A program made the translations under genes and the position numbers. The notes beneath the pieces were generated by a model. That model ran no database searches. It was given only the letters and a program-made list of their open reading frames with translations, and was not told where the DNA came from. Shown here in pieces: positions 12,565-55,606 of a DNA stretch of 64,000 nt. The DNA is from Candidatus Omnitrophota bacterium (GTDB lineage: Bacteria > Omnitrophota > Gorgyraeia > JAHJTE01): contig JAHJTE010000003.1 in the NCBI GenBank assembly GCA_018830005.1, positions 135,674 through 199,673 on the forward strand, read 5' to 3'. Numbering within the stretch: the stretch's first letter is position 1; every line of letters starts with the position of its first letter.

Positions 12565-12984
12565 GTGGGGCTCCGTTTGAAGTGGCTCCCCGAGCGAGAC
12601 TCGAAGCGAACAATAAGGCGTGTCGTAACTGATGAATTGCCATACCATTACAGATGGCACAATAAAACAAAAACTCTATTTCGGGGCAAAAAGCCGGATT
12701 TTATTCCAAGAGGCAAGATTGTTTCAAAGAAAGAACTGCGGCATTACAAGTATTTGCAGGAGTATAAAAACCCGATTAAGAAGGCGATGGGATTTCAGCG
12801 GATCATGCAGGAAGAAAACCTGAACCAAGGACAACTGGCAAAAAAAATGGGAATATCACGAGTAAGAATAACTCAAGTATTAAACCTGCTCAAGCTACCA
12901 CAAGAACAACAGACTTACGTTTTGGAATATGGTAAAAAAGAACAAATAACCGAAAGAATGTTAAGAGAATCTCCGAACCATTAA
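12565..12984 (+). CDS. ParB-like HTH protein (truncated relative to full ParB)
   Basis: ENLNQGQLAKKMGISRVRITQVLNLLKLPQEQQ resembles the ParB/KorB HTH. The N-terminal ParB nuclease-like domain is absent. Confidence 0.4.
   Translation: MGLRLKWLPERDSKRTIRRVVTDELPYHYRWHNKTKTLFRGKKPDFIPRGKIVSKKELRHYKYLQEYKNPIKKAMGFQRIMQEENLNQGQLAKKMGISRVRITQVLNLLKLPQEQQTYVLEYGKKEQITERMLRESPNH
12583..12608. repeat. degenerate att-like copy of tRNA 3' end (tggctccccgagcgagactcgaagcg)
   Basis: About 75% identical to the tRNA-Asn 3' segment tggctcccccgcgaggactcgaacc, in the same orientation. Confidence 0.45.
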
Positions 12985-15428
12985 TTATTCGTTGGCTTCA
13001 TATTCATCGCCAATAGTACAGATTTTAAATAATTATTTCTTCCGTAACATAACAATAGTCTATTTACTGTATTAACGCTAAATCCCTGATCAGGAATATT
13101 AAATCTGATTTTCCCCAAAAATCTATAACTCTGTTGAGCACTATCAATATTTTGTTTATCCATCCATTGCCAATCTTTTTGAGCTTGATTATATGAAGAA
13201 TCCAACTCCGACAATAATGTGGATATAATCTGATTTGCTTTTGTTTGATCCGTTTCATTCCCCACAGAAAGAAATATTTTATGTAAAACTTGCCTTAAAT
13301 CCCTCAATTTTCCAGCTTTTCTCATTTCTAAACAAATAAAAGAATTAGCCTCAAATGTAAATTCATAAGCACTCATCTTTTTCGATAAATTTTCCCACAA
13401 GCATTGCCCCTTATTAGAAACTTTCAATATTTCTTCCCATCGGAACTGATTATCAGTATATAAAATTGCCCCTGTTAATTGAGCAAGAAAGAAACCCAAC
13501 TCAAAATTTGGCGTTAAATGAGATATAAGTATCTGCCCTGCTCCCTTTTTCCCAACAGACGGCTGCAATAAGGCAAGAGGATCTGCCTTGCGCTGCTGTT
13601 TCATATATTCTAATACTTTTTCTGTATCGTCTTCAGACAAATCAGGCAAAGCTTTTGTAATATTATGCCTCAAGCTTTCCTCCGGCAACCCACTCATCAT
13701 CCTTTTTATATCATCCATACAAAGATCCTTCATTGGTGCCATTTGATCATCGCTCAACTTAAGTCCTTTAAGGCGAGATTGAGCCATTTCCCATATTTGC
13801 TTTTGAAGTTGAAGATTCAAAGAACAAGGATCAGGAATCAAATTAATGATTCCTTTTTCAATAAAAGGCATTAACTGCATAAATAACAATGCGTTTTTAA
13901 GTGTCTCTTGTTTATATTGAGCAGGTGATTCAACAGGATTATATTCTGGTTTTATGTATGTGGGATTCATAAATGGGTTCATAACCAATATTTCATCAAA
14001 ATAAAGCGAATAACTAATAACATTTTGAAGAATTGTTCTCGGGTCAATCAGGCCAGCATAAAGAACCCTTGATACTCTTTTATCAGGCATTGGTAATAAC
14101 TCAATTATATTTGTCCCTTTAGGCCATAAACATTCAAATGCCTTATGAATATCTGCAACCTGCTTATCACTTAATTCGGCACGAATATCTTCCCATGTTT
14201 TTCCCCGTGATAATCCCAAAATATTCATCAACATGTTAAAAAACATTAAATTCCGTTCTCTAATACTCCGCACATTAGTTATTGGCATCTCACCTGATTT
14301 CTTATCCCTACAGCATTTTTTGTATTTTTTCCCACTACCACAAATGCATTCATCATTAGCCCCGACTTTCTCCTTTCTTTCTGGCTTTTTTAGATATGAC
14401 AAATCACCTACAGTGCGACCATATGCATCTTGATAATGAGTTCTACCATCTTCATAACCAACATATATTTCCCCTCCAAAATGATGCAACTCATTCTTAG
14501 GTGGCATTAACACTCGCCCCAACTCCGACCACTCACATCTAATTTCTTTCTCAGGAAATAACCATTCTTTTTGGGCTGCGGCTACATATCTTCGTGCACG
14601 ACACTTTAAAATCAAATTTATTTTATTTACATCATTAGCCTCTATTTTACGCGAGCGTATCATTGCATCAATACGCGAAATCGTCGAATCAAAATGTCTC
14701 GCATTCGTCCTGTTCGAAAGTAAGTCTTGGCTATCCGAATCTTTTGCATATTCTAAATTTGTTAAAATAAGACAATGATTTAAGTCTAGAGGAAATATAG
14801 TCTGAGAACCCTTAAAAGAAATTAAAGGATCATCGGGGTACTTACAATGAGTAGAATCAGGCGGGCAAGCAGCATTATATATTGTCACAGGGTGATCAGT
14901 AATAATAAATTTTACATCTGAGTCTTCAGCAGACACAATTTCACGGGTTGCTTCAACCCACATCGTACAGTGCATTTGTCTTATATGCTGCATTTCAAGC
15001 AACAATTGAATCTTATTTATACCAGGATACTTTGTTTGAAGCCAATTCAATCCCTTTGGTGTTCGAATCTTTTGGGCATCTAAATATCCAAAGAACTCCT
15101 GGAAGGTTTTATGCATCGAAAGAAAATCGTTACTAATAAATGCCCGAATCGCAGCAAAACCAAATGTATCAATTTCACCAAAAAGATACTTTTCAATCTC
15201 ATCATTAATTAAACCAAAAAAGAATGTCGTGTATAAATCCTTTTCACAAAAACACTGTGACGGCGACCACCAGTGATAACTGTTAAAGACAACTTCTTTG
15301 CCATTAGGAAGAATCTTTTTATCTGGATGTAAATTTAGATAACAAAGCTTACTCCCCTTTGATAATAAAAATCTCTTTTGATACCATTCTGGTACATAAT
15401 GATTTTTTCTAGTTACAGATTTTTGCAT
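12981..15428 (-). CDS. DUF4238-like N-terminal domain + SEC-C metal-binding motif protein (815 aa)
   Basis: N-terminal NHYVPEWYQKRF matches the HYVPQFYLRNF signature I associate with DUF4238. CICGSGKKYKKCC is a canonical SEC-C motif. Confidence 0.5.
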   Translation of the reverse strand: MQKSVTRKNHYVPEWYQKRFLLSKGSKLCYLNLHPDKKILPNGKEVVFNSYHWWSPSQCFCEKDLYTTFFFGLINDEIEKYLFGEIDTFGFAAIRAFISNDFLSMHKTFQEFFGYLDAQKIRTPKGLNWLQTKYPGINKIQLLLEMQHIRQMHCTMWVEATREIVSAEDSDVKFIITDHPVTIYNAACPPDSTHCKYPDDPLISFKGSQTIFPLDLNHCLILTNLEYAKDSDSQDLLSNRTNARHFDSTISRIDAMIRSRKIEANDVNKINLILKCRARRYVAAAQKEWLFPEKEIRCEWSELGRVLMPPKNELHHFGGEIYVGYEDGRTHYQDAYGRTVGDLSYLKKPERKEKVGANDECICGSGKKYKKCCRDKKSGEMPITNVRSIRERNLMFFNMLMNILGLSRGKTWEDIRAELSDKQVADIHKAFECLWPKGTNIIELLPMPDKRVSRVLYAGLIDPRTILQNVISYSLYFDEILVMNPFMNPTYIKPEYNPVESPAQYKQETLKNALLFMQLMPFIEKGIINLIPDPCSLNLQLQKQIWEMAQSRLKGLKLSDDQMAPMKDLCMDDIKRMMSGLPEESLRHNITKALPDLSEDDTEKVLEYMKQQRKADPLALLQPSVGKKGAGQILISHLTPNFELGFFLAQLTGAILYTDNQFRWEEILKVSNKGQCLWENLSKKMSAYEFTFEANSFICLEMRKAGKLRDLRQVLHKIFLSVGNETDQTKANQIISTLLSELDSSYNQAQKDWQWMDKQNIDSAQQSYRFLGKIRFNIPDQGFSVNTVNRLLLCYGRNNYLKSVLLAMNMKPTNN

Positions 15429-20069: not shown

Positions 20070-20149
20070 ATGTCTGTAGATGTCAGCTCCCTATTTAATA
20101 ATTATGTTTATGGGCAGATTTTGAACTCTTGCGCTCCTCCTTCTTCAGT

Positions 20150-20165
20150 ATCTTTTCAGTGTAAA
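20150..20165 (+). promoter_or_regulatory. TTTTCAGTGYAAA motif copy 2 (34 nt upstream of ATG 20199)
   Basis: tcttttcagtgtaaac. Confidence 0.4.
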
Positions 20166-20198
20166 CCATTTATACCCTTCTGCTACTACTTTGATTTA

Positions 20199-21623
20199 AT
20201 GACAGATACAACTCTCACAGACGAGCTTCTTCTCAAGCTTGAGCCGGAATGGGGCAGCAAAAAAATAGAAAGCCTCAAGCTAATATACGCGCTTGGTGAC
20301 GAAGACCGAAAAACCAGAATAGAAAAAATCCTGAACATTTCATCCAGAAAACTCCTGAATGACAACCTCCTCAACACCAACGTTCTGCTGCCGCCGGTAA
20401 CAAAAGAAGAATGCGAAGGAAAAAAAGAAGTCTTTGCCGGAACAGTCTGCTACGGCAAAAATGGCGAGGACAAGCATAGGGAGCTATATCCCTTGTATCT
20501 CAATTTCGAAGACGTAAAAAACCACACACTCATAACAGGCCTCTCAGGCACAGGAAAAACCACGCTCGGCTACAACCTCCTAATAGAACTCTCACAAAAA
20601 GGCAAACGCTGCATCGTATTTGATTGGGACAGAACATGGCGAAACCTACTCTCACTCGACAAAAAAGAGTATCCATTCACTGAGAAAATAAAGGTCTACA
20701 CGATAGGGCGAAGCGACATTATGCCGTTTAGCTGGAACATGTTCTTCAACCCGCCACCAAACGTGAAATTCTCAAACTGGCTCGGCATATCATCCAGCAA
20801 ACCACTCCAAAAAAGCCTGTATTCCGGGCAAGGTGTAAGCGACTATCTCGAAAACGAAGCAGAACAGCTCATGGACGCATACCAAAACGGCGTACTCAAA
20901 ATGCTCCCAAACATCGAAGATATGAAAATCCGCATACAGGCAAAATACGCCCAAGCACGACAGCTCCTCTGGAAACAAAGCACAGAAAGAATCCTAAAAG
21001 AACTCACACGAGAAAGCATGAAAGAAGTATTCGGCTCACGACAGCCCATAGACATATCAAAAGAAATCCTTGAAAGAGACGGCATAACAATCATAGAAAT
21101 GGACATAGAAACACCCGAACACCTAAGAGTCCTGTTCCAGGAACTGGTCCTCAACTACTTCATGCTTTACTACCTGCACAAAGGCGAAGCAGAAAAAGAA
21201 GAACTCCGCACAGTAGTATTTCTCGAAGAATTCCCAAACATGCTACCCAAATCTAAAATTGAAACGCAAACCGGAGGAGAAATCATCAAAATGCTCTTCA
21301 AAGAAGCCAGAAAATTCGGGCTGGGAATCGTAGCCATAGCACAAGAAAGCTCAGAACTCCCAAACTATGTTACAGCAAACTGCAAAATCCAGGCACACTT
21401 CGCCTGCCAAACCAAGCGAGACATAGAAGCCACAGCGGGAAGTCTTTTTCTAAAGAAACATGAGATTCCTTATATGGATCTCATCTGGCAGGGTGAAGCA
21501 ATAATGAAAGTCAAAGGCAGAGTCAAAAACTGCCTCGTAAAAATCCCACTCGCTCCAATTAAAGAAAAAATCACTGACGAACAGCTCAAAGAGATGAAAG
21601 AAAAATGGCAGCCCCAAAGCTAA
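20199..21623 (+). CDS. FtsK/HerA-superfamily P-loop ATPase (conjugative DNA-translocase-like), paralog 1
   Basis: Walker A LITGLSGTGKTTL, and a Walker B region (VVFLEEF). Start moved to MTDTTL because the upstream 43 codons look noncoding. Homologous to 50166-52289. Confidence 0.55.
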   Translation: MTDTTLTDELLLKLEPEWGSKKIESLKLIYALGDEDRKTRIEKILNISSRKLLNDNLLNTNVLLPPVTKEECEGKKEVFAGTVCYGKNGEDKHRELYPLYLNFEDVKNHTLITGLSGTGKTTLGYNLLIELSQKGKRCIVFDWDRTWRNLLSLDKKEYPFTEKIKVYTIGRSDIMPFSWNMFFNPPPNVKFSNWLGISSSKPLQKSLYSGQGVSDYLENEAEQLMDAYQNGVLKMLPNIEDMKIRIQAKYAQARQLLWKQSTERILKELTRESMKEVFGSRQPIDISKEILERDGITIIEMDIETPEHLRVLFQELVLNYFMLYYLHKGEAEKEELRTVVFLEEFPNMLPKSKIETQTGGEIIKMLFKEARKFGLGIVAIAQESSELPNYVTANCKIQAHFACQTKRDIEATAGSLFLKKHEIPYMDLIWQGEAIMKVKGRVKNCLVKIPLAPIKEKITDEQLKEMKEKWQPQS

Positions 21624-21970
21624 AGATAGTGTTCTACGAAAACGAAAATGTGCAGAGCTACTTCTACCTTGAGAAAACCGAATCGCTCCGAGTAATTAAA
21701 ATCCTAAAAATCCTTCCCCAGCTTACAGAATGGACACCCGTATCTACAATATCGAAAAAGATAAGCGCCAAATTGCCTGCAACCTTATGGACAATACAGA
21801 AGCTCGCAGGAGCACAACGCATAGAAATCAACACAGGCAAAGAAACCCAAACCATAGCAGAACGCCCCATAATCCTCGTCCAGAAAAAACAATACAACAC
21901 CCTCAACAACATCCTCAAAACAAAATACCTAAGAGCAACGGTATACGTCAAAGCACATATTCGAAAATAA
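21605..21970 (+). CDS. hypothetical protein
   Basis: ORF overlapping the previous gene end. Confidence 0.3.
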   Translation: MAAPKLKIVFYENENVQSYFYLEKTESLRVIKILKILPQLTEWTPVSTISKKISAKLPATLWTIQKLAGAQRIEINTGKETQTIAERPIILVQKKQYNTLNNILKTKYLRATVYVKAHIRK

Positions 21971-27755: not shown

Positions 27756-27931
27756 ACAAACCAAAGATATTTATACTTAAACAACTCTTGTTTTCACACG
27801 CAAACAACTTTTTTCAATAGCACATTGAACCTTCTCAACTATGGGCTCAGAGCTCAGCCGGAGACTGGTTTAGTGTTCTATTGGTTGTTAAACAATATTT
27901 TTATATTGTGCGTTACTGTGAGGTGATGAAT

Positions 27932-29359
27932 ATGGCTGAAGACGATATTTATGGGAACAAAAGGCATTATGAGAATTTTAAGCAAAATATTAGGTATCTT
28001 ACTCTGCCACCTGATGTTTATCTTAAGGTAGTGCTGAGAGATCCAATAATCCCGTTAAGAGGTTCCAGAAGAAAATATTATTGTCTTAACAAGGCGAACC
28101 TCTCTTATTTTTACCAGATGGTTGAGTACTTGGAGGCAAAAGACATGTCTTATATCGCAAGGATGAGAATTCTTCGGGATATCCTGTTCATCTGCCACCA
28201 TGTCCCTAAAAACCTTGAAGAATGCACCAGGGAAGACATAAACAAGCTAATGGCACACGCCCACCGCAGTTATAAAACACCTTCCAGCAAAAACCACTTC
28301 ATCAAACACCTGAGATACATCTGGAAAATCCTATTTCCAGAAAAGGACTCGCACGGCAGAACAGAGGATACTATCACACCTTATCCCGTTAGGCACGTCT
28401 CTCCAAGCATCGATAAAAGCAGACAAAAAATACGCAAGGACAAATTCACAACACAAGAACTCCAAAACATAATCAGCTATTTCGGAAAAGACCCAAGAAT
28501 GCAAGCATACCTGACACTAGCCCTAGAAAGCCTCGGCAGGCCGCAAGAACTGCTTTACCTCCGAATAGGCAACGTCGAGATGCACGACAACTATGCCAAA
28601 ATCTTTCTTTCCGAACACGGCAAAGAAGGAACAGGCATACTTCAATGCATAGACAGCTACCCATACCTCCTTAAATGGCTTAACCAACATCCGCTAAAGA
28701 ACAACCCCCAAGCATTCCTCTTTGTAAACACGGGAACAACCAACACACTCGAACAATTCAAGCCAACAAACATAAACAAAATGCTGGCAAAAGCCGTTAA
28801 GGACCTCCGAATAAACAAGCCAATAACATGCTATAGCCTAAAAAGAAACGGCGTAACCCTAAGAAGGCTTAGAGGAGAAAGCGACATGGAAATACAGCAC
28901 GCCGCCAGATGGACAAGCACGCAAGTCCTGAAAACATACGACCAAAGCAGCCAAAACGAAGCCCTAAAGCTGCAACTCCAAAAAAGAGGCCTGATACCAG
29001 TAGCCACCGACAATAACCCTCTCACAAACAAGAAATGCGCCTTCTGCAACACCGTAGCCGGCAGCACAGACATCACCTGCCCGCAATGCAAGCGCCCACT
29101 AGACAGGAAACACGTAATCGAGGAAACAAAAAAAGACGAGCAAATACAAAACCTAAAAGAAACAGTAAGCCAATTCACCAAGCAAATATCCACCATGAAA
29201 CAAGAAATACTACAAGACCTGGCAAAAGAAATACTACACAATCAGCAAGGCTACAGGCCGGACAACCGGGAAGACACGGGAAACTTTTCATCCAAGAGCT
29301 CCTCAAAAACACCCGTCAGCGACTTACCCTTAGAAACCTCGCGCTTCAAAGCCCTATAA
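27932..29359 (+). CDS. tyrosine-type site-specific recombinase with C-terminal zinc ribbon
   Basis: C-terminal H..R...Y-like block (HAARWTSTQVLKTYD) and CAFCN...CPQC. Start at MAEDD with SD gaggtga. Confidence 0.5.
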   Translation: MAEDDIYGNKRHYENFKQNIRYLTLPPDVYLKVVLRDPIIPLRGSRRKYYCLNKANLSYFYQMVEYLEAKDMSYIARMRILRDILFICHHVPKNLEECTREDINKLMAHAHRSYKTPSSKNHFIKHLRYIWKILFPEKDSHGRTEDTITPYPVRHVSPSIDKSRQKIRKDKFTTQELQNIISYFGKDPRMQAYLTLALESLGRPQELLYLRIGNVEMHDNYAKIFLSEHGKEGTGILQCIDSYPYLLKWLNQHPLKNNPQAFLFVNTGTTNTLEQFKPTNINKMLAKAVKDLRINKPITCYSLKRNGVTLRRLRGESDMEIQHAARWTSTQVLKTYDQSSQNEALKLQLQKRGLIPVATDNNPLTNKKCAFCNTVAGSTDITCPQCKRPLDRKHVIEETKKDEQIQNLKETVSQFTKQISTMKQEILQDLAKEILHNQQGYRPDNREDTGNFSSKSSSKTPVSDLPLETSRFKAL

Positions 29360-34551: not shown

Positions 34552-35936
34552 TTCTGCACCGCCTCTTCAATAAGATCCTCAACATGACGCTTGGCTGTTT
34601 CAAGTAGATTTTGAGATTCCCTAAGCGCCTGTTTAGATTGAATAACCAAATCAGCCAACTTATCCCTTTTACTTTTTGATAATAAGGGTATCTTCAATTT
34701 TTTTATAGATCCTAGTTTCCAATGTACAATTAAAGCACCTGAACATTCTCTTTCGATTTGCATGCGGCATGCTTTTGAATTGATTGCTAAAGCTAAATAT
34801 TCAGGAGAAATTGAAGGATCAATTATTGATAATCTAACTATTCCACTCGAAATTATACCATCTAAAAGAGTATCTAAACAGTAGCATACACCTGGTGTTC
34901 CATCCTTCGTCAGAAGCAATTCCCCTACTGCTGGCTTAAAAGCTGCTAGAGATTTAAATAAGCTATCGGAAATATATTTATCGCTGCTACCCGTGATAAT
35001 TCCCATCTCTTTCATGTTGCTTACTCTTGCAAAAAGTTTTCCTGAATCAGTATACTTTCCGCTGCCGACTTCTATACCTTTTGAAAAAGTGGCAATCTTT
35101 GAAAGAGGAATCGTTTGAATAGACGTCAAGTGGCTTTCAATCTGACGAAACGCAATCTGATAATAATCCGCATCTGCTCGATTGTTTCCCACTACCTCCG
35201 ACAGCCTTGCCTCATATGACAGCGGCTTGTCAAAGACAAGCTTGTCCAGCTCCAACTCGCTTTCCAGAAGCTCCTGCGCCTGAGCGTATAGGGATTTGGA
35301 GCTATCTAAAAGGGCAAATGATTTTTGTATTAAACTACCGATTTTATCTTGCAGAGATATAGGAGGGCTTGGTATTAAAATGCGTTCAACCTCACGACAG
35401 TTTAAATTTACCTGTTCAGTTTGGCGGGAATGTCTCCAAAGCTGGTCTCTACCCATTTTGATTTGCAAATAAGCAGTCAAATAATAAGGATTTAAGGAAT
35501 TACTAGTCTTTATAATAGCAACATTTTGATTTGTTACTCTCTTAGGGTCAACAGATCTGATTATTGCAGCACGACCAACAATCTCATGAGTTGCACCTAT
35601 TATTGTTACAACAACACTGTCATCGTTAATATAGTCCTTAGGCGATAAAGCGTACTCTGGAATAAAGTCACAATTATCGTAATCTATACGCCCCTCACGT
35701 AATGTATTGGTCTTAATAAAATGAACAGTGGAGTCATTTTTAGTTATTCTCCGGTTTCGTGGTGTTCTTCCAGTTCGCACTGGTTCAGATATCATTTTAG
35801 AAAGCCGTTTGACATCATACTTTTGTGAAAATGATTTCCAAACTGAATCTTCCCAGAGATAATGGGGTTTATAAAATTCACTATCAATTCTTGTATACTG
35901 AATGTCGGATATTTTTACTTCACTCCAAACAGCCAT
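34548..35936 (-). CDS. hsdS: HsdS-like DNA specificity subunit (two TRDs)
   Basis: RIDSEFYKP is a conserved S-subunit motif. 462 aa. Confidence 0.6.
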   Translation of the reverse strand: MAVWSEVKISDIQYTRIDSEFYKPHYLWEDSVWKSFSQKYDVKRLSKMISEPVRTGRTPRNRRITKNDSTVHFIKTNTLREGRIDYDNCDFIPEYALSPKDYINDDSVVVTIIGATHEIVGRAAIIRSVDPKRVTNQNVAIIKTSNSLNPYYLTAYLQIKMGRDQLWRHSRQTEQVNLNCREVERILIPSPPISLQDKIGSLIQKSFALLDSSKSLYAQAQELLESELELDKLVFDKPLSYEARLSEVVGNNRADADYYQIAFRQIESHLTSIQTIPLSKIATFSKGIEVGSGKYTDSGKLFARVSNMKEMGIITGSSDKYISDSLFKSLAAFKPAVGELLLTKDGTPGVCYCLDTLLDGIISSGIVRLSIIDPSISPEYLALAINSKACRMQIERECSGALIVHWKLGSIKKLKIPLLSKSKRDKLADLVIQSKQALRESQNLLETAKRHVEDLIEEAVQK

Positions 35937-38710
35937 TATTCCGTCCTCCAGAAGTCGAATTTTTGTTTTAATGCAAATTTGACAAAGGATTCGGCTATGC
36001 AGAGTTTGTCTTCTGATAATTTTTTTGCGTTGGCAAGGTCTTCTGGTGTTAAGTTGAAGTTGACCAAATCCTGATTAATCATTGGTTGCCCTTCTTGGGG
36101 GTGACCATTTGGAAATTCGATTAGGTTTCCGTCTTCATCGATTAGGTGCTCGTAGTCTCCAGAATTATTTTTACCACCCCGTTCACTCACAGCCATAAAA
36201 ATAGAATAGTCCAATTTCTTAGCAACTTCAGCGTCGATGTAGCGGTTTTTAAGTGTTCCAATAAGGTCACTATCTAATAACACAAGTTCCAGCTTTCCGC
36301 GAGTAGTTAGGGCTTTTAGTTCGTATTCTGCTTGAGGTATTGCTTTTTCCAACGCTTTAATTTCAGCTTTAAGTCGTTTCTGTTGACCTTTTATCTTTTC
36401 TTTAAGCTTTTTTTCTTCTGCCCTGCTATTTTCTTTTAGCTTTTTCTTTTCTGCGCTCAGCTCTCCATTGGTTCCTTTCCATCCTTTTTCTAATGCCTTT
36501 ATTTCAGTTTGTAATTTCAGTCTTACTGCTTCTATGTCCGATTCCGTGTCAGAAAGTTTTTGTTTGGCTTTAATTAGTTCGCTTTTTAACGAGTTGAGCT
36601 TTTCTTCGGCTTCCTCTTTTTTCTCTTCAATACTTAAGGGATTGACATCCTCTTCACTTTCCTTAACGTCTTCGACTTCGTTTTCTTCATTTGTTTCGTT
36701 AATATGGTCAGCTTCTTCCTGTTCACTAAAGGTTTCTAGTAATAAATCCGCAATTGCTTCAGGAATGACGTCTTCAGGTATATCCGTTGCTTTCTGATAT
36801 TTCTTAAGCAATGAATTAATGATTGCTTCGTAATCGGGGCAGGATGCGGCTATGGCCTGTTTTGCTTTTTCAATTTTTGCCAATTCGTCTTCAGTATATT
36901 TCTGCACGAATAGTACTGATGTTTTGGTGCCTGTATGAGGTTTAAAAGTATTCTGATGAAGTCCCACAACTGCTAAGAGTCGAGCCTTTCGGAGTATCCA
37001 TTCTCGAATAAATGCCAGTGATGAGTTGTTGAATTTTCCTTGCGGAAGGACAATTCCTGCGCGCCCTCCCGGTCTTAAAAATTTCAGTATTCGTTCAATG
37101 AATAGAACGTCTCGTTCTTCCTTTGCTTGCTTGTCTTTAGCTCTCTTGAGCGCTGGTTTTGCGAGGTCATAGTGAGCAAGCATTTTCTTGTCTTTCATTT
37201 CTCCTGCAAATGGGGGATTTGCAAGGACGACATCAAACTTTAATTCGTCAAAGTATTTCCATGCGAGGTCTTCTTCTTTAAGAAGATTTGATTCATCTTG
37301 AGCTATTAATCTATTTTTAAGTAGTTTGGCGTCTTTGAGGCCTTGCATGAGTTTTTGGCCTGATTGTGTGCTGTACCATGTTTTTGGGTCTAGACTATTT
37401 ACGTCTGGTCCAAAGATATTGGTGTGACCGTCGCCAGCGATGAGCATTAATGCACGTGATGTCTTTGCGGCTCGCATTTCGAAATCGATTCCCCAAAGGT
37501 ATTTTGATGCATAACGGTGTTTGCGGAGTTCGCGCTGTGCAGTGCCGGCTGCTGGATAGCACCATTCCATAGCGTGGATTAGAAATCCTCCTGAACCACA
37601 TGCGGGATCCATGACGTATTCGTCTTTTTTTGGATTGAGCATTCGAACACACATTTCAACGACGTGCCGTGGCGTGAAAAATTGTCCTTTTTTCTTTTTT
37701 GCTTCTGTCGGTAGCAAGTATTCAAAAGCGTCATCCATAATCCTGAGGTTTGAGCCTAGTAGTCTTACCCCTTCAATGGGACCTACGCAAACTTGCAGGT
37801 GGTCTTTTCGAAGTTTAATATCCTCGTTTTCGTCAAATATGCCTGGCCATTCTTCACTTGATTTATGGAATAGTTTATTGATGCGGTCATAGGTTATTTC
37901 TGGGTCTATTGACTTCCTGAATTCGACTTCTTGATTCCTTCTTTTGGGGTTTTCTACGGCTTCTTTTTCATCCCATATCTTAGCGAAAATAAGTTTAAAT
38001 ATTTCGTTGAATTCGTCGACTCCGCTGTCTGCCAAAACAAGTTCTTCCAAATCTTGAACTATTTTTTTGAAATTAAAACTCTTTTTGAGGTGGGCTAATG
38101 TTTTCTTTGCTTCAAGTACATCTTTTGGTTCCTGGCCTCTGCGAGGTATGTCAAATAGGGTGTCGTCAAATTCTTTTGGATATGGACGATATAGTATGAT
38201 ACTGTCGCTTCCATTCGACCATACACCAACGGGTGAGCCTTCAGCATTTAAATAACTCTTAAGCTGTTCAATTCCGTCTTTGCGTTTTGGCTTTTTAACT
38301 TCAACTATAATTTTGGGTGTTTGCTTTGTTGAATCAGTATAAACGATGATGTCGGCAGCTTTCGTGTTAACTTCAGTCCCAAATTGAACGGACTTTTCCA
38401 GCTCTATCTCTTCTGGTTTATATTCATAGGAATATATGAGCTTGTACACCCAAAGCTGCCTTACTATTTCTTCAGGATGGGATTTGCCATCAGCTGAATA
38501 AACAAGAACTTCTTCTTTGCCTGAAGAAAAGGGTATCATGCTTTTAACATAATATTTTGTTTTTCCTGCCTCGCGCCCTGATTCGACTACTTTAGGGTAA
38601 ATCTTGATTATTTCGTGTATTGGTTTTTCTAAATTCTCAAATTCTGTTAATTCATACTGAGTTTTAGGATCTTTAAAAACCTTATCTAGCACTTCTTTTG
38701 TGTTCATCAT
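35936..38710 (-). CDS. N6-adenine DNA methyltransferase with N-terminal HSDR_N-type nuclease-like domain and C-terminal coiled coil
   Basis: DPACGSGGFL (motif I) and LANPPFAGEM (NPPF motif IV). N-terminal ADIIVY...IIVEVKKPK...GVWSNG resembles HSDR_N (PD-(D/E)xK). 924 aa. Confidence 0.65.
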   Translation of the reverse strand: MMNTKEVLDKVFKDPKTQYELTEFENLEKPIHEIIKIYPKVVESGREAGKTKYYVKSMIPFSSGKEEVLVYSADGKSHPEEIVRQLWVYKLIYSYEYKPEEIELEKSVQFGTEVNTKAADIIVYTDSTKQTPKIIVEVKKPKRKDGIEQLKSYLNAEGSPVGVWSNGSDSIILYRPYPKEFDDTLFDIPRRGQEPKDVLEAKKTLAHLKKSFNFKKIVQDLEELVLADSGVDEFNEIFKLIFAKIWDEKEAVENPKRRNQEVEFRKSIDPEITYDRINKLFHKSSEEWPGIFDENEDIKLRKDHLQVCVGPIEGVRLLGSNLRIMDDAFEYLLPTEAKKKKGQFFTPRHVVEMCVRMLNPKKDEYVMDPACGSGGFLIHAMEWCYPAAGTAQRELRKHRYASKYLWGIDFEMRAAKTSRALMLIAGDGHTNIFGPDVNSLDPKTWYSTQSGQKLMQGLKDAKLLKNRLIAQDESNLLKEEDLAWKYFDELKFDVVLANPPFAGEMKDKKMLAHYDLAKPALKRAKDKQAKEERDVLFIERILKFLRPGGRAGIVLPQGKFNNSSLAFIREWILRKARLLAVVGLHQNTFKPHTGTKTSVLFVQKYTEDELAKIEKAKQAIAASCPDYEAIINSLLKKYQKATDIPEDVIPEAIADLLLETFSEQEEADHINETNEENEVEDVKESEEDVNPLSIEEKKEEAEEKLNSLKSELIKAKQKLSDTESDIEAVRLKLQTEIKALEKGWKGTNGELSAEKKKLKENSRAEEKKLKEKIKGQQKRLKAEIKALEKAIPQAEYELKALTTRGKLELVLLDSDLIGTLKNRYIDAEVAKKLDYSIFMAVSERGGKNNSGDYEHLIDEDGNLIEFPNGHPQEGQPMINQDLVNFNLTPEDLANAKKLSEDKLCIAESFVKFALKQKFDFWRTE

Positions 38711-38829: not shown

Positions 38830-40398
38830 CTATAACTGTAATTTGAAAAGTTTCTTTAGTACTTTCTGCACGGTTTCTTGATAATCTTCAATTTGGCGTT
38901 CATCAATTCCTACTGTGGCGCGTTCATGAATTAGTTTACATCGCAATCCGTAGTAGTGGTTAATCTTTTTCCAGAGTTTCTCGCTAATCTTGACGTATTT
39001 TTTTATTTCTTTCTCAACTTTATGCCTTGCATTAAACAGGTCTAACAATTCTCTGTCCGTATAGTGATGTCTCGATTCATTGACCAAATACTCTTTAAAT
39101 GCGATTTCTAGGGTGCTATCTAATAATATCAGGCAGATGCGGTTCTTTTGCTCTAGCTTTTGATGATAGATGATATCTACAGCAATCATTCCTTCATAAA
39201 GACCGCTTGTCCAAGGTTTATCCTTTGCAATCTTTCGATTAGCTTGCTTAATAATGTCACTATATCTTAAGTTGGCTTTAGGCAAAGGGGGGAGATATGA
39301 CCTTTTTGCCTCCGGAAAATTGTCTATCTTCTTTGCCACAATATGTCCGGAAGGATATTTAAAAACTTTGTCTGACCAGTCGCCCTCCCATCTCCTAGAA
39401 AGTGACGCAAAATCTTTCACAACCTGAACAAGCCAACCACGCAACGCAACAAAAATTGGATGATTTTGATTAATCCCTGACTTACTGCTATTCCATGGCA
39501 TTAAGTCAGCCTCTCCTTTAAGCGAAACAATGACTCTGGTGAGGGAAATGCTGGGATGCGGTCGTCCTGCTAATCCTTTTGTAAAACCAACTTCATAATT
39601 TTTGAGAGCTTTCGCAATTAATCGGTCATTACAGTAGAAGTAGACCCCATACTCACCACTAGCAGGACTTGACTCCATGCTGAGACCAGCAAGAACCTCA
39701 ACTTTAACAACCTTACCTTCTGCGCTTGGTAAATCACCATGATACCTATGTGGTAAATACTCCGGAGGGTATGCCCAATTTTCAAAGATATGTGGTTTTA
39801 AAACGTCTGCATTAAGCTGAATTTTTAACTGCTTATTAAATAAAAATTTGGCGTAGGTAGCTTCTAAATGCTCTCTAAGGTATTTGAGACTACCATCGGT
39901 TATTACAAAACGAAGTTTATGAAGTTCAATTCTAGTAGTTCCTTCAGTTATCTGATCAACCTCATAAACAGGTAGCTCCCAATCATCATTATCAAGCCAA
40001 GTTTCATCAAATTCTATACTATAAGTTTTTTCTTTAGCATACCGAGTTATTATTCGTATATCCTGAGACAAAGCTACAACCGCCCTTTTGCTTCCAACTC
40101 CAAAAATCCCTATTGTCTCATCTGTTGGCAAATTACTAGTCTGCCCGGGCCCAACAATTAAATTAAGTTCGGATTTCTTAATTCCCCCGGCACTATCAGA
40201 AACATTAATCAACTGCCTGTCTTTATCAATATCTATATGGATTTCTAAAGACCTCTTTCTGCCGATTTTCACCCATATATCAAGGGCATTATCAATTAGC
40301 TCACAAATGGAGCGATTAAGGTCATAATCCGCAATAATGGAAAGAAATATCCTTTTAGAAGGGACAGCATCTATCGTATCTACTTCTTTCTTTACCAA
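38830..40398 (-). CDS. GHKL-family ATPase (MORC/paraMORC-like)
   Basis: Bergerat-fold motifs ELIDNALD, SDSAGGI and GIFGVGSKRA. Confidence 0.55.
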   Translation of the reverse strand: MVKKEVDTIDAVPSKRIFLSIIADYDLNRSICELIDNALDIWVKIGRKRSLEIHIDIDKDRQLINVSDSAGGIKKSELNLIVGPGQTSNLPTDETIGIFGVGSKRAVVALSQDIRIITRYAKEKTYSIEFDETWLDNDDWELPVYEVDQITEGTTRIELHKLRFVITDGSLKYLREHLEATYAKFLFNKQLKIQLNADVLKPHIFENWAYPPEYLPHRYHGDLPSAEGKVVKVEVLAGLSMESSPASGEYGVYFYCNDRLIAKALKNYEVGFTKGLAGRPHPSISLTRVIVSLKGEADLMPWNSSKSGINQNHPIFVALRGWLVQVVKDFASLSRRWEGDWSDKVFKYPSGHIVAKKIDNFPEAKRSYLPPLPKANLRYSDIIKQANRKIAKDKPWTSGLYEGMIAVDIIYHQKLEQKNRICLILLDSTLEIAFKEYLVNESRHHYTDRELLDLFNARHKVEKEIKKYVKISEKLWKKINHYYGLRCKLIHERATVGIDERQIEDYQETVQKVLKKLFKLQL

Positions 40399-41140: not shown

Positions 41141-41413
41141 CTAAATCAAAAGCTCCTCCTCCTTAAGAACCAACCTCGAAACCTCCCTGAACTCCGCCTG
41201 CTCAGCCAACCCAACCAGCTCAGCCTTCAGAAGCTCCTGCTCCCACCCCGTGAGAACCGCACATACACCGTATGACGCCAGGACACCCTGCAAATCATCC
41301 AAGACATCCTCAACATCAAACCAGACATCAAACTGCCTCACATACTCCACGACACGATACACCAGCCACGAACCAGACTCACTGACAACTTTGTCTTTAC
41401 ACATATCGAACAC
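41141..41413 (-). CDS. hypothetical protein
   Basis: ORF. Confidence 0.3.
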   Translation of the reverse strand: MFDMCKDKVVSESGSWLVYRVVEYVRQFDVWFDVEDVLDDLQGVLASYGVCAVLTGWEQELLKAELVGLAEQAEFREVSRLVLKEEELLI

Positions 41414-41616
41414 CTCCGAATTTCTTTTTTATAGCGCCAGCTATTAGAAAAAAGAAATGGAGGACACCCAACCAAACAAAAGCCACCACAAACTATGTAA
41501 TGTTTTAGACGGCCCCTAAGGGAAAAGGTTTAGGAACGGATTTTGCGAACGAGCAAAAGCCTCCATAAACCTTTAGGCGTGAAAAAAACACAAGAAATCA
41601 GACACAGAAAAAAAGA

Positions 41617-41811
41617 TTAAAACAGAAAAGAAAAATACTCCTGCATCTCACCCAGAAGCTGCTTTCCCTGCTCACTTTCAAATTCAACAAACTCAATCTC
41701 TTTCCGTTCATAATCCACTTTCCTAAACTGCATAAGCACAGCATCAACAGTGAAACCCCTAAAAGTCGGCAACTGAAACGGAACATTTTGTAACATCCTC
41801 AACACCTCCAA
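41617..41811 (-). CDS. hypothetical protein
   Basis: ORF. Confidence 0.25.
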   Translation of the reverse strand: MEVLRMLQNVPFQLPTFRGFTVDAVLMQFRKVDYERKEIEFVEFESEQGKQLLGEMQEYFSFLF

Positions 41812-41829
41812 GCAAAAAAAGAGGGGGAT

Positions 41830-42177
41830 TCACCCCTCAACATCACCGTCCTGCTCTCCCTCCTTCAGCACCAAGTACTCAAACGCCTTCTCGAGAACAA
41901 GAACAGCCTTGGGCAAATCATTCACTCCTAAAGAACTCGAACTCTGCCAATCACCATTGTTATCCTTGTAACGCCTCTGCAACGTCACAGAACAATACTC
42001 AACATCTTTGCCCTTAATGTTCCTGGCATTCTTCCAGACAGTAGCACTTATAGCTCCTGTGCTAAACTTCTTCTCAGGCTTGTTTCCATCTCCCATTTTC
42101 ATAAACTCCATTCCAGCTCTTCTAAACGAGAGCAAGAATTTTATTTCTGCCAAGAAATAATAAAATTCGTGCGACAA
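41830..42177 (-). CDS. hypothetical protein
   Basis: ORF. Confidence 0.3.
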   Translation of the reverse strand: MSHEFYYFLAEIKFLLSFRRAGMEFMKMGDGNKPEKKFSTGAISATVWKNARNIKGKDVEYCSVTLQRRYKDNNGDWQSSSSLGVNDLPKAVLVLEKAFEYLVLKEGEQDGDVEG

Positions 42178-42220
42178 AACTTAAAAAGGAAAAAATAATT
42201 AGAAAAAAGGAATAAGGCAA

Positions 42221-42514
42221 TCAGTACCGGGAATAATACCGTTTATCTGACAGAAGCTTCTTCTCAACACTGCCAACACCTTCAGCTTGGCGGGAACCGG
42301 CCTTGCACTCATCAATAATCTTATCAATAGTGTCGCCCCTCAAGTCAGCCAAGCTAGTGTTCGGCAGCCGAAGACACATCTCCTCAGATATTGAATACGT
42401 CTGCCTCGCATAAACGATACCGCTACCATAAGAACTACTGGAATCGCCAACAGGAATCCTCCTGATGCGAGTAACTTTCTTCTTCCGCCACACCCTCAAC
42501 AACGCGTCAGTCAT
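42221..42514 (-). CDS. hypothetical protein
   Basis: ORF. Confidence 0.3.
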   Translation of the reverse strand: MTDALLRVWRKKKVTRIRRIPVGDSSSSYGSGIVYARQTYSISEEMCLRLPNTSLADLRGDTIDKIIDECKAGSRQAEGVGSVEKKLLSDKRYYSRY

Positions 42515-42795
42515 CTATAGCCACCTCGATAATCAGGGCCATCATAAAGATTAACAGGAACGTCAGCACACCTCATAGTCTTCTCAGCTTCTTTCCAGGC
42601 ACCTTTCAGCAAACTGTCAAAATAACTGGCAGGATCCCACGCAATCCTATTATCCTCAGACTCCTTCAGCCAAGCATCAAGGTCAACAATATTCCTCAAA
42701 ATGTCATAATCCCCATTAGGAAAAACCCTGGCGTAAACCACGCCAGGCCTTTCCAACTCCTTCACGGAATGTTTTACACAGTCATTAATCCCCAT
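42511..42795 (-). CDS. hypothetical protein
   Basis: ORF, overlaps the previous gene. Confidence 0.3.
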   Translation of the reverse strand: MGINDCVKHSVKELERPGVVYARVFPNGDYDILRNIVDLDAWLKESEDNRIAWDPASYFDSLLKGAWKEAEKTMRCADVPVNLYDGPDYRGGYR

Positions 42796-53953: not shown

Positions 53954-55606
53954 ATGAAAGACAAAAAGTGCGCCCTATATATTCGAGTTTCTACCCCCCG
54001 CCAGGCAAGCGTTGAAGACGGCAGCCTCGACGCCCAGGAATCCAAGCTAAAAGCCTACGTCAACTACGAAAACACATCCAAACAAGACAAGTGGAAAATA
54101 AGCGGAACCTACCGAGAAGAAGGACGCAGTGCCAAAGACCTCAAGCGCCCACAATTCCAGCGCATGATGCAAGACATCAACGACGGCAAAATAAACACCA
54201 TAGTCGTCTGGAAAATCGACAGGCTCACCCGCAGCCTCAAAGACTTCTCCAACCTATGGGAAACATTCAAAGACCAAGGCATACAACTCATCAGCCTAAA
54301 CGAAAAATTCGACACAAGCACAGCAATCGGCAGAGCAATGCTCACCATCATCCTCGTCTTCGCTCAACTCGAACGCGAGCAAACCGGAGAAAGAACCTCA
54401 GCCACAATGCAATACCGCGCAGAACAAGGACTCTGGAACGGAGGCAGAATACTCGGCTACGACCTTGATAAAGAAAAAAAGGGCGTGCTCAAAATCAACA
54501 AAGAACAATCCAAACTGATAAACAAAGCTTTCGAGCTATGCATGCAAAAAGGCAGCGCAGGCCAAACCCAACAAATACTTAACGAACTCGGCCACAGAAT
54601 GCCAACATACGAATCACGCAGAGGCAAAAAACACGGCAATACCCTCTTCACAAAACAAGCAGTAATAAGACTTCTGACAAACTCCGCCTATATTGGAAAA
54701 ATCAGTTGGGCCGGCAAACTATACAAAGGAATACAGAAGCCCATCATAGATGCAAAAACATTCGATAAAGTCCAGACAATACTAGGAAAGAACCGTAAAA
54801 CAAGAACCAATGAAAGAGCACCCAAGCAACACGTCTACATCCTCCAGGGCATTCTCAAGTGCGGCAAGTGCGGCTCAATGCTCACTCCAAAAAGCGGCAA
54901 GAACGGCTCCGGACAGCCATACCATTATTATCAATGCACCCAGAACAGCCACATAGGAAAACAAGCGTGCAAAGCCAAATATGTTCCTGCTAAAAGCATT
55001 GAAGACTTTGTTCTCGAAAGAGTCCGCGAGCTGTCAACCAAGCAAGAAGAAATTGACGCAATGATAGAAAGGGCTAGCAAGGCAGGAAACAAACAGATAA
55101 CCCAGCTTGAGGAGAATAAAAAAAGGCTTCTGGCAAAACTTCAAGAAGTCAAAGGCAGGCTCGGAAAGATAGTGGACGCCATAGAGGCCGGACAGGCATT
55201 CAGAACATTCTCTGAACGCGTCAAAACTCTTGAAGAAGAACGCGAAAGCCTAGAAAAAAAGATAGAAGAAACTTCTTTCGAAATAGAAAAAGCCAGTCAG
55301 GAAATACTGAGCGCAGAAACAATGAAGCAAAACTTCCAACAGCTCAGGGACGTAATAGATAAAGCTAATCCTCAGCAACTGAAAGACCTGCTCTACAACA
55401 TCATAGAAGTCATCGAATACCACGAATCAACAGACGACAAATCAACAGGACACCTCAAAATAAGCTACTTCGAACAACCCAACCTCACCATACCCGACCC
55501 CAAAAATACAAAGAGCGAACAACACCCAAATGGGGCATTGTTCGCTCAGAGTATCAAATGGCTCCCCCGCGAGGACTCGAACCTCGGACATGGTGGTTAC
55601 AAGTGA
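53954..55606 (+). CDS. large serine recombinase (resolvase-domain integrase)
   Basis: N-terminal resolvase catalytic domain (YIRVSTPRQ...VWKIDRLTRS). Recombinase domain and zinc ribbon (CGKCGSML...YYQC). Coiled coil. The 3' end overlaps the tRNA 3' exon. Confidence 0.8.
   Translation: MKDKKCALYIRVSTPRQASVEDGSLDAQESKLKAYVNYENTSKQDKWKISGTYREEGRSAKDLKRPQFQRMMQDINDGKINTIVVWKIDRLTRSLKDFSNLWETFKDQGIQLISLNEKFDTSTAIGRAMLTIILVFAQLEREQTGERTSATMQYRAEQGLWNGGRILGYDLDKEKKGVLKINKEQSKLINKAFELCMQKGSAGQTQQILNELGHRMPTYESRRGKKHGNTLFTKQAVIRLLTNSAYIGKISWAGKLYKGIQKPIIDAKTFDKVQTILGKNRKTRTNERAPKQHVYILQGILKCGKCGSMLTPKSGKNGSGQPYHYYQCTQNSHIGKQACKAKYVPAKSIEDFVLERVRELSTKQEEIDAMIERASKAGNKQITQLEENKKRLLAKLQEVKGRLGKIVDAIEAGQAFRTFSERVKTLEEERESLEKKIEETSFEIEKASQEILSAETMKQNFQQLRDVIDKANPQQLKDLLYNIIEVIEYHESTDDKSTGHLKISYFEQPNLTIPDPKNTKSEQHPNGALFAQSIKWLPREDSNLGHGGYK

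Follow-up and report, generated by a model that had tools for sequence, protein, structure and literature searches.

A BsaXI-like restriction-modification protein encoded with Dnd-derived ATPases in an Omnitrophota genome

The window analyzed here is a stretch of 64,000 nucleotides (nt) from a Candidatus Omnitrophota bacterium (assembly GCA_018830005.1, contig JAHJTE010000003.1, positions 135,674 to 199,673 of the forward strand), and all window coordinates are counted from its first letter. It contains a six-gene operon headed by a gene for a restriction-modification (RM) subunit of 924 amino acids (aa), which is followed by genes for a specificity (S) subunit, a small Sp-DndD protein, a 212-aa protein, the ATPase DndD, and a DndE domain fused to a HerA/FtsK-type ATPase (Table 1). 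The operon most likely encodes a type IIB-style restriction-modification enzyme governed by an ATPase module derived from Dnd systems. The RM subunit is a homologue of its counterpart in BsaXI, a characterized type IIB enzyme, and the cassette recurs nearly unchanged in more than ten phyla.

The first-pass annotation of this DNA had described a 924-aa methyltransferase with an N-terminal HSDR_N-type PD-(D/E)xK domain, a gamma-class methylase core, and a long Lys/Glu-rich coiled coil at the C-terminus, and had likened it to the BcgI (type IIB) design. The open reading frame (ORF) at 35936-38710 proved to be uninterrupted, and it is read on the minus strand (38710 to 35936), a detail that the annotation had not stated. 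Homologues, as well as an identical database entry (P0001, from a Candidatus Omnitrophica metagenome-assembled genome (MAG), 923 aa), begin at the second Met, and judged from these sequences this codon, at 38707, is the probable true start. Both named domains were borne out by Pfam, which assigned residues 79-180 to HSDR_N_2 (E = 2.5e-20; 73 bits, cut-off 25) and residues 324-699 to N6_Mtase (E = 1e-35), and every motif quoted earlier was found in the protein: AADIIVY...IIVEVKKP...GVWSNG, DPACGSGGF (368-376), and NPPF (498-501). Because motif I (DPACGSGGF) comes before motif IV (NPPF), the methylase has the gamma-class order. A single polypeptide, encoded by one ORF, joins the endonuclease to a gamma-class N6-adenine methylase, which is the arrangement of type IIB enzymes, and the N-terminal PD-(D/E)xK domain was the sole nuclease domain detected in the operon. 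Besides the last methylase strand, LDYSIFMAV (833-841), the C-terminal region (residues 800-924) contains two helices, a small segment rich in beta structure, and terminal helices. It is highly conserved among 41 close homologues and aligns with residues 684-758 of BsaXI, including the sequence LDYPIFMA.

In BsaXI, alanine substitutions at E73, D90, E105, and K107 of the N-terminal domain abolish cleavage (PMC11997821). A HMMER alignment paired these residues with E105, D120, E137, and K139 of the RM subunit, and these four are its predicted catalytic residues. They were invariant across the 41 homologues (71-93% identity) and remained so in a set of 150 sequences to which 30 members of a sister family, 41% identical to the RM subunit, had been added. 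An alignment of the putative catalytic residues, which the first-pass annotation had proposed as a check, thus came out with the four essential BsaXI residues kept and invariant. The methylase motifs DPACGSGGF and NPPF were invariant in the same two sets.

The best match by sequence in the PDB was the RM subunit of BsaXI, with E = 7e-32 in phmmer and E = 2e-41 when a profile of the 41 sequences was used, while type I M subunits were weaker in the same searches (1e-20 or worse). The sequence match comes in pieces, namely the nuclease motif, the connector with the methylase, and the strand LDY(S/P)IFMA. Two AlphaFold2 models of the RM subunit were made. The first, built with the 41 close homologues, had a mean predicted local distance difference test (pLDDT) score of 54.6 and was unusable outside a helical hairpin described below; the second, with the sister family added, reached a mean pLDDT of 78 and a predicted template modelling score of 0.66. 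Foldseek searches of the PDB with this second model returned three BsaXI chains at the top (E = 5e-21 to 1.6e-20, ~950 aligned columns). The runners-up were type I M subunits at ~1e-11, about ten orders of magnitude weaker. Sequence searches and modelled fold together establish the 924-aa protein as a homologue of the type IIB BsaXI RM subunit, with intact nuclease residues. The BcgI-type design suggested earlier fits this result, although the double cutting of type IIB enzymes, in which both strands are cut to either side of a bipartite site, could be extended to the window protein by analogy only.

The resemblance to BsaXI (PDB 8w0p, 8w2p, 8w2q; PMC11997821) covers the near-equal length of the RM subunits (916 vs 924 aa) and the order of domains, which runs from the PD-(D/E)xK nuclease through a helical connector to the gamma-class N6-adenine methylase, with a helical insertion between strands 7 and 8. 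Both systems also have a two-domain S subunit as a protein of its own and share the essential nuclease residues, and in both a long antiparallel two-helix element with many charged residues is exposed to solvent. The two proteins are only ~20% identical. BsaXI is a two-gene system that works without ATP (PMC11997821), whereas the window RM subunit is locked in an operon with two ATPases. Because these ATPase partners are obligate, it is doubtful that the window enzyme shares the ATP independence of type IIB enzymes.

The two-helix element of the window protein is a Lys/Glu-rich hairpin. In the second model it consists of helices 694-742 and 748-799 (pLDDT ~75-86) with the turn GWKGT between them, and both helices were also present in the first, poorer model. 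The combined content of Lys and Glu is 43-46% in the two helices, compared with 24% in the whole protein. A MAFFT-based count gave arm lengths of 44 and 48 residues for 148 of 182 homologues, and all six sequences with 11 additional residues in the first arm also had 11 or 12 more in the second. These fixed arm lengths and coordinated insertions support an antiparallel hairpin. The arms vary in sequence among the 41 homologues, and W744 at the tip is kept in at least 90% of them. Upstream, the model shows knob-like helices (607-673) and then an acidic disordered linker (~664-692); the length of this linker (residues 660-699) varies from 30 to 47 residues among homologues.

The coiled coil described in the first-pass annotation therefore stands in part. 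Its Lys/Glu-rich helices are real, and the length of about 250 aa given for it corresponds to the whole 233-residue insertion between methylase strand 7 (595-604) and strand 8 (838-841, within LDYSIFMAV). The hairpin proper, however, has only 106 residues (694-799) and is internal: it is followed by the conserved 125-residue region that holds the last methylase strand, so it does not form the extreme C-terminus. The heptad-like pattern also held for one helix only, since the 3.5-residue hydrophobic periodicity was significant in the first (p = 0.0015 against shuffles) and not in the second (p = 0.17).

In BsaXI a "knob" occupies the position between strands 7 and 8, and the long antiparallel "paddle" extends after strand 8 (PMC11997821). 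The window hairpin, in contrast, lies in the strand 7-8 insertion, at the position of the knob, and after strand 8 there are ~80 residues with no long helices, which sets the protein apart from the subgroup with knob and paddle. The tips also differ, being W-x-G-T here and acidic, rich in D, E, and K, in the BsaXI paddle. The different placement relative to strand 8 points to separate origins, and going by the model the hairpin and the paddle are probably independent acquisitions, analogous in form.

The six genes of the operon are separated by overlaps of 1-4 nt or a spacing of 2 nt, and these junctions mark the operon, as read from the sequence, as translationally coupled. Scans for a promoter and a terminator gave nothing better than shuffled sequence.

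Table 1. Coordinates of the operon genes and of the regions of the RM subunit in the window.
Feature	Positions	Strand	Description and basis
RM subunit gene, 924 aa	35936..38710	-	Nuclease, connector, gamma-class N6-adenine methylase, helical insertion, C-terminal region; ORF, Pfam, BsaXI matches
N-terminal PD-(D/E)xK endonuclease domain, aa 79-180	38171..38476	-	HSDR_N_2; predicted catalytic residues aligned to BsaXI
Methylase core up to strand 7, aa 324-606	36893..37741	-	N6_Mtase; motifs DPACGSGGF, NPPF
Lys/Glu-rich antiparallel helical hairpin, aa 694-799	36314..36631	-	AlphaFold2 models, composition, arm-length comparison
Conserved C-terminal region, aa 800-924	35939..36313	-	Alignment to BsaXI 684-758, conservation, model
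S (specificity) subunit, 462 aa	34548..35936	-	Pfam Methylase_S; PADLOC Specificity_I full length; start overlaps RM stop by 1 nt
Sp-DndD protein, 63 aa	34360..34551	-	PF20306 E 4.1e-10, above cut-off; overlaps S stop by 4 nt
Optional component, 212 aa	33722..34360	-	C-terminal Mrr_N-like winged helix, E 2.5e-5, below gathering score
DndD-family ABC/SMC-like ATPase, 662 aa	31737..33725	-	TIGR03185; PADLOC DndD E 4.8e-138
DndE domain (aa 4-106) fused to HerA/FtsK-type ATPase, 508 aa	30208..31734	-	Pfam DndE, DUF87

The separate HsdS-like subunit that the earlier description called for is the product of the adjoining gene, a full-length S subunit in which PADLOC Specificity_I models matched both halves; it has two target-recognition domains, as in type IIB systems. 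Sp-DndD resembles the C-terminal tail of DndC (positions 403-460 of 481 in the PADLOC model). The 212-aa protein was tried as a relative of Sp-DndD, but the match was marginal (E = 0.004 in one pairwise comparison) and was not used. DndD passed the equivalog cut-off of TIGR03185 (381.7 bits vs 245.85) and has the Walker A motif GMNGSGKT (36) and the signature LSAGEK. The last protein matched the C-terminus of DndH (E = 2.2e-43) and mad8 (E = 2.2e-20) in PADLOC, with Walker A GKPGVGKT (173) and Walker B ILVFDE (391), so that the Walker motifs are intact in both ATPases. Its DndE domain scored 47.6 bits in Pfam (cut-off 25) and 43 with TIGR03184, under the cut-off of 71.85 because it is a fused domain. 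The first-pass annotation had remarked that downstream ATPases are foreign to the BcgI design; these ATPases are DndD and DndE-HerA/FtsK, and they are a co-conserved part of the cassette.

A GHKL ATPase gene (MORC/MutL-like, HATPase_c_3; 522 aa, 38830-40398, minus strand) lies 119 bp upstream of the RM gene and had no PADLOC match. It was considered as a seventh component and rejected, as it was detected in none of 84 genome-derived loci and none of 80 metagenome loci. It may be part of another defence gene set, along with small ORFs on the minus strand at 41141-42795.

The module shares with DndBCDE systems and their DndE-HerA variant (Rakesh, Aravind & Krishnan, 2024; PF20306) the DndD protein, the DndE domain, Sp-DndD, and a HerA/FtsK ATPase like the DndH C-terminus, and in particular it pairs a DndD ATPase with DndE. 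Unlike Dnd, the cassette has neither DndA nor the PAPS-reductase part of DndC, of which only the tail of ~60 residues is left, as Sp-DndD; there was no PAPS_reduct domain or convincing desulfurase among the Pfam matches around the homologous loci of Paenibacillus (L001) and Bowmanella (L003). Sulphur incorporation is therefore not expected. The modification enzyme is instead an N6-adenine methylase fused to a nuclease and accompanied by an S subunit.

A distant relative is found on the megaplasmid of Methylorubrum extorquens AM1 (L170, 6464-11446), where a PAPS-reductase gene (DndC-like, 380 aa), a 70-aa ORF, DndD, and DndE-HerA follow one another; DndD is 24% and DndE-HerA 29% identical to the window proteins. 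Since the ATPase pair follows a DndC-like gene there, it appears to serve a phosphorothioation-type enzyme in that relative. The 70-aa ORF had no BLASTP or Pfam support as an Sp-DndD and is a positional equivalent only. The PLSDB table lists no genes for this region. Comparison of the gene orders suggests that in the window family the catalytic part of DndC has gone, its tail survives as Sp-DndD, and a nuclease-methylase with its S subunit has come to occupy the upstream position.

This arrangement fits a published view. As set out in the accessible text of PMC10853773, DndE occurs in some cases as a fusion to HerA/FtsK with a DndD-related ATPase next to it, and the DndD-DndE core is proposed to be a DNA-scanning apparatus able to recruit other modifications; a methylase-nuclease in the DndC position agrees with that proposal. 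The methylases given this role in the same accessible text are cytosine methylases only, and only with a CxC-type ATPase clade. The pairing of a methylase with the Dnd module may already have been drawn in earlier comparative genomics. Our literature searches found no experimental study of the cassette, nothing on Sp-DndD, and nothing linking DndD, HerA, or DndE with specificity subunits. The PADLOC and NCBIfam models that we ran recognize only separate parts of it, namely a type I methylase, DndD, and DndE.

The spread of the cassette was assessed by a genome scan with one genome per species, which gave 80 loci with an RM identity of 50-78% for nearly all of them. They occurred in Bacillota, Pseudomonadota, Desulfobacterota, Bacteroidota, Planctomycetota, Spirochaetota, Nitrospirota, Kiritimatiellota, Omnitrophota, and other phyla. 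Cyanobacteria are also among the groups that have the cassette, and its cultured carriers include Paenibacillus polymyxa (CP097770), Vibrio vulnificus, and Acinetobacter towneri. Among the 58 genome loci that were informative, that is, with enough sequence downstream of the RM and S genes, 51 had Sp-DndD, DndD, and DndE-HerA after these two genes in the same order. The reverse test used metagenome loci found through DndE-HerA with at least 7 kb of upstream sequence, and an RM gene was present upstream in 26 of 27. RM, DndD, and DndE-HerA are each ~70% identical across phyla. The S subunit is only 24-67% identical, as expected for a specificity subunit, which diversifies. The 212-aa gene was detected in 23 of the 51 module-bearing genome loci. 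A search for a conserved regulator upstream turned up nothing but various small helix-turn-helix genes, in a minority of loci, and a scan of viral contigs found no relatives.

Several observations bear on the mobility of the cassette. The operon has a tyrosine integrase gene (27881-29359, plus strand) just past its 3' end and, 15 kb past the other end, a gene for a large serine recombinase (53954-55606, plus strand). The flanking position of these two genes suggests that the cassette is carried by a mobile island. The Paenibacillus cassette has an integrase and a D5_N primase as neighbours, and that of Bowmanella is inside a Tn7-like element next to Mrr. A 4.8-kb contig binned in a Candidatus Woesearchaeota archaeon MAG (L025) encodes an RM subunit 69% identical to that of the window, which reflects either a transfer into archaea or a binning error.

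The tight junctions, the linkage in 51 of 58 and 26 of 27 loci, and the similar identities of ~70% support one integrated system. By analogy with BsaXI, two RM subunits and one S subunit would assemble, and this (RM)2S complex would methylate adenines in a bipartite site and so mark the host DNA. Unmodified DNA would be cut by the N-terminal nuclease of the RM subunit, and the hairpin would probably reach along the DNA and help to place the nuclease there, a role like that of the BsaXI paddle. The Dnd-derived module, made up of the ABC/SMC-like DndD, the ribbon-helix-helix DNA binder DndE mounted on a hexameric HerA/FtsK pump, and the DndC-tail peptide, would be a DNA-scanning, loading, or translocating apparatus. 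It would use ATP to load, move, or license the RM-S complex, so that modification, cleavage, or both would depend on ATP, and it would stand where HsdR stands in type I systems. A bolder version of this mechanism, which we put forward only tentatively, is a new mode of ATP-dependent restriction, in which a type IIB-style nuclease-methylase is loaded, moved, or licensed by DndD and DndE-HerA/FtsK in place of the HsdR motor. Sp-DndD would then be an adaptor that once tethered a sulphur-inserting enzyme and now tethers the methylase-nuclease, and a modification head would have been swapped on a DNA-scanning chassis.

Several findings weigh against an RM enzyme governed by the Dnd-derived module. 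Seven of the 58 informative genome loci have RM and S genes and lack the module, as does Trichormus plasmid D. The RM proteins of such loci keep their full length (893-929 aa), so that the extra length is not tied to the module. Four of the seven carry Fic, RhuM, or YhcG (DUF1016) genes directly 3' of S (L044, 4598-5647; L052, 10299-11345; L058, 6654-7796; L084, 5629-6753). In classical type I operons, too, unrelated hitchhiker genes are found downstream of S. Many module-bearing loci have an unannotated gap of 1-2 kb between S and Sp-DndD, and these gaps together with the unrelated genes suggest two sub-modules with a permissive junction. The sister family consists of 674-aa HSDR_N_2-methylases (L086, 11881-16096; L167-L169, 9001-13216), which share 86-100% identity across Enterobacteria, Pseudomonas, Rhizobium, and others. 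They conserve the nuclease residues, strand 8, and the C-terminal motifs and are too short for the hairpin, and their unit comprises the methylase, S, and an unannotated 263-aa protein, with no ATPase; in some cases GmrSD genes follow it. Since loci with RM and S only exist and the sister family has no ATPase, the RM enzyme may be self-sufficient. As to structure, the Foldseek template modelling score was low (0.35-0.37), as expected for a flexible multi-domain protein, and the relative placement of the domains is not fixed by the model. The hairpin lies off the paddle position and has a different tip, so a paddle function for it would be an analogy only.

These points are the substance of the main rival explanation, which holds that the operon joins two independent neighbours, a self-sufficient, ATP-independent type IIB pair of RM and S and a separate Dnd-derived HerA/FtsK "capture" defence module that shares defence islands with it. 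BsaXI, which needs no ATP, sets a precedent for the first of them. Such independence is difficult to reconcile with a linkage that is nearly obligate in both directions, with the fixed gene order, and with start and stop codons that overlap in the window; moreover, neither a nuclease nor a modification enzyme is part of the Dnd-like module itself. A single informative locus, L157 (metagenome contig Ga0180009_10001746), has Sp-DndD, DndD, and DndE-HerA with neither RM nor S detected within 7 kb upstream. There, a 344-aa ORF ends right at the start of Sp-DndD. On balance we consider two independent neighbours unlikely.

Less probable still is a mechanism like that of MADS or BREX, in which the methylase and S would only mark self, the ATPases would block or extrude foreign DNA, and the nuclease-like domain would bind or nick DNA. 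MADS is a multi-gene operon that methylates a bipartite site and restricts phage by a mechanism given as unknown, and its authors' model makes MAD6, MAD7, and MAD8 mandatory (preprint 10.1101/2023.03.30.534895). It has in common with the cassette a methylase of the HSDR_N type, an S subunit, and a HerA-like ATPase (MAD2, MAD5, and MAD8, respectively; Maestri et al., 2024), and the likeness to these three is weak but real. Deletion of mad5 is lethal in MADS. HerA/FtsK pumps have also been proposed to intercept invading DNA, according to the accessible text of PMC10853773. Set against this, the four BsaXI catalytic residues are invariant across two families, and the NCBIfam scores were far under their cut-offs, at 267 bits vs 720 for MAD2 and 140 vs 400 for MAD5. 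Among the PADLOC and NCBIfam matches listed for the cassette proteins, only mad2, mad5, and mad8 appeared, with no match to mad6 or mad7, and membership in MADS was rejected on these grounds. MADS also differs from the cassette in having no DndD, DndE, or Sp-DndD, and MAD2 is too short, at ~650 aa (profile length 654), to accommodate the hairpin. MANTIS (Gao_RL) was rejected as well, as none of MtsA (AAA+), MtsB, the BREX-type methylase MtsC, or the PLD-helicase MtsD was found, and PglX-type models matched only weakly.

Type I systems such as EcoKI and EcoR124I have a homologous methylase core and S subunit and likewise include ATP-dependent partners; the cassette differs from them in that the nuclease is fused to the methylase, the ATPases are of the ABC/SMC-like and HerA/FtsK kinds, and the HsdR SF2 helicase-nuclease encoded with hsdM and hsdS in type I is missing. 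That the RM protein is nevertheless an ordinary type I M subunit, with a vestigial N-terminal domain and an HsdR motor-nuclease encoded elsewhere, is highly improbable: database entries of the family do read "type I restriction enzyme M protein" or "N-6 DNA methylase" and the best PADLOC model is MTase_I, but type I M subunits matched it much more weakly than BsaXI, no HsdR-like protein was present among the scanned large ORFs of the window, nor in the two annotated homologous loci (L001 and L003) within 10 kb, and a vestigial domain would not retain an invariant catalytic tetrad at ~70% overall identity.

Other genes of the window lie apart from the operon. A second, unrelated HerA-like (DUF87) ATPase of 517 aa (20070-21623, plus strand), overlapped by an ORF at 21605-21970, may belong to another HerA-based system in the region. 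An 815-aa protein with DUF4238 and a SEC-C motif is encoded at 12981-15428 on the minus strand. The segment 43758-47893 (plus strand) encodes an ECF-type sigma factor, a zf-HC2 anti-sigma protein, and a 938-aa protein in which an M48 peptidase is joined to a prenyltransferase-like alpha-alpha toroid.

What is new here is a widespread relative of the BsaXI RM subunit that has a long hairpin of its own and is joined to a DndD-DndE/HerA core, an association that comparative genomics had partly anticipated. The ~70% identity of the cassette enzymes across phyla indicates strong constraint together with active horizontal transfer. The hairpin, at a different position in the fold, would offer an independent test of what BsaXI-like paddles do, and the highly diverse S subunits make the family a possible source of new specificities of the type IIB kind. 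Should the operon act as a single unit, it would link type IIB restriction enzymes with the Dnd machinery, two fields that have been studied apart, and would provide a tractable case of a DNA-scanning ATPase core that has swapped its chemistry from phosphorothioate to N6-methyladenine.

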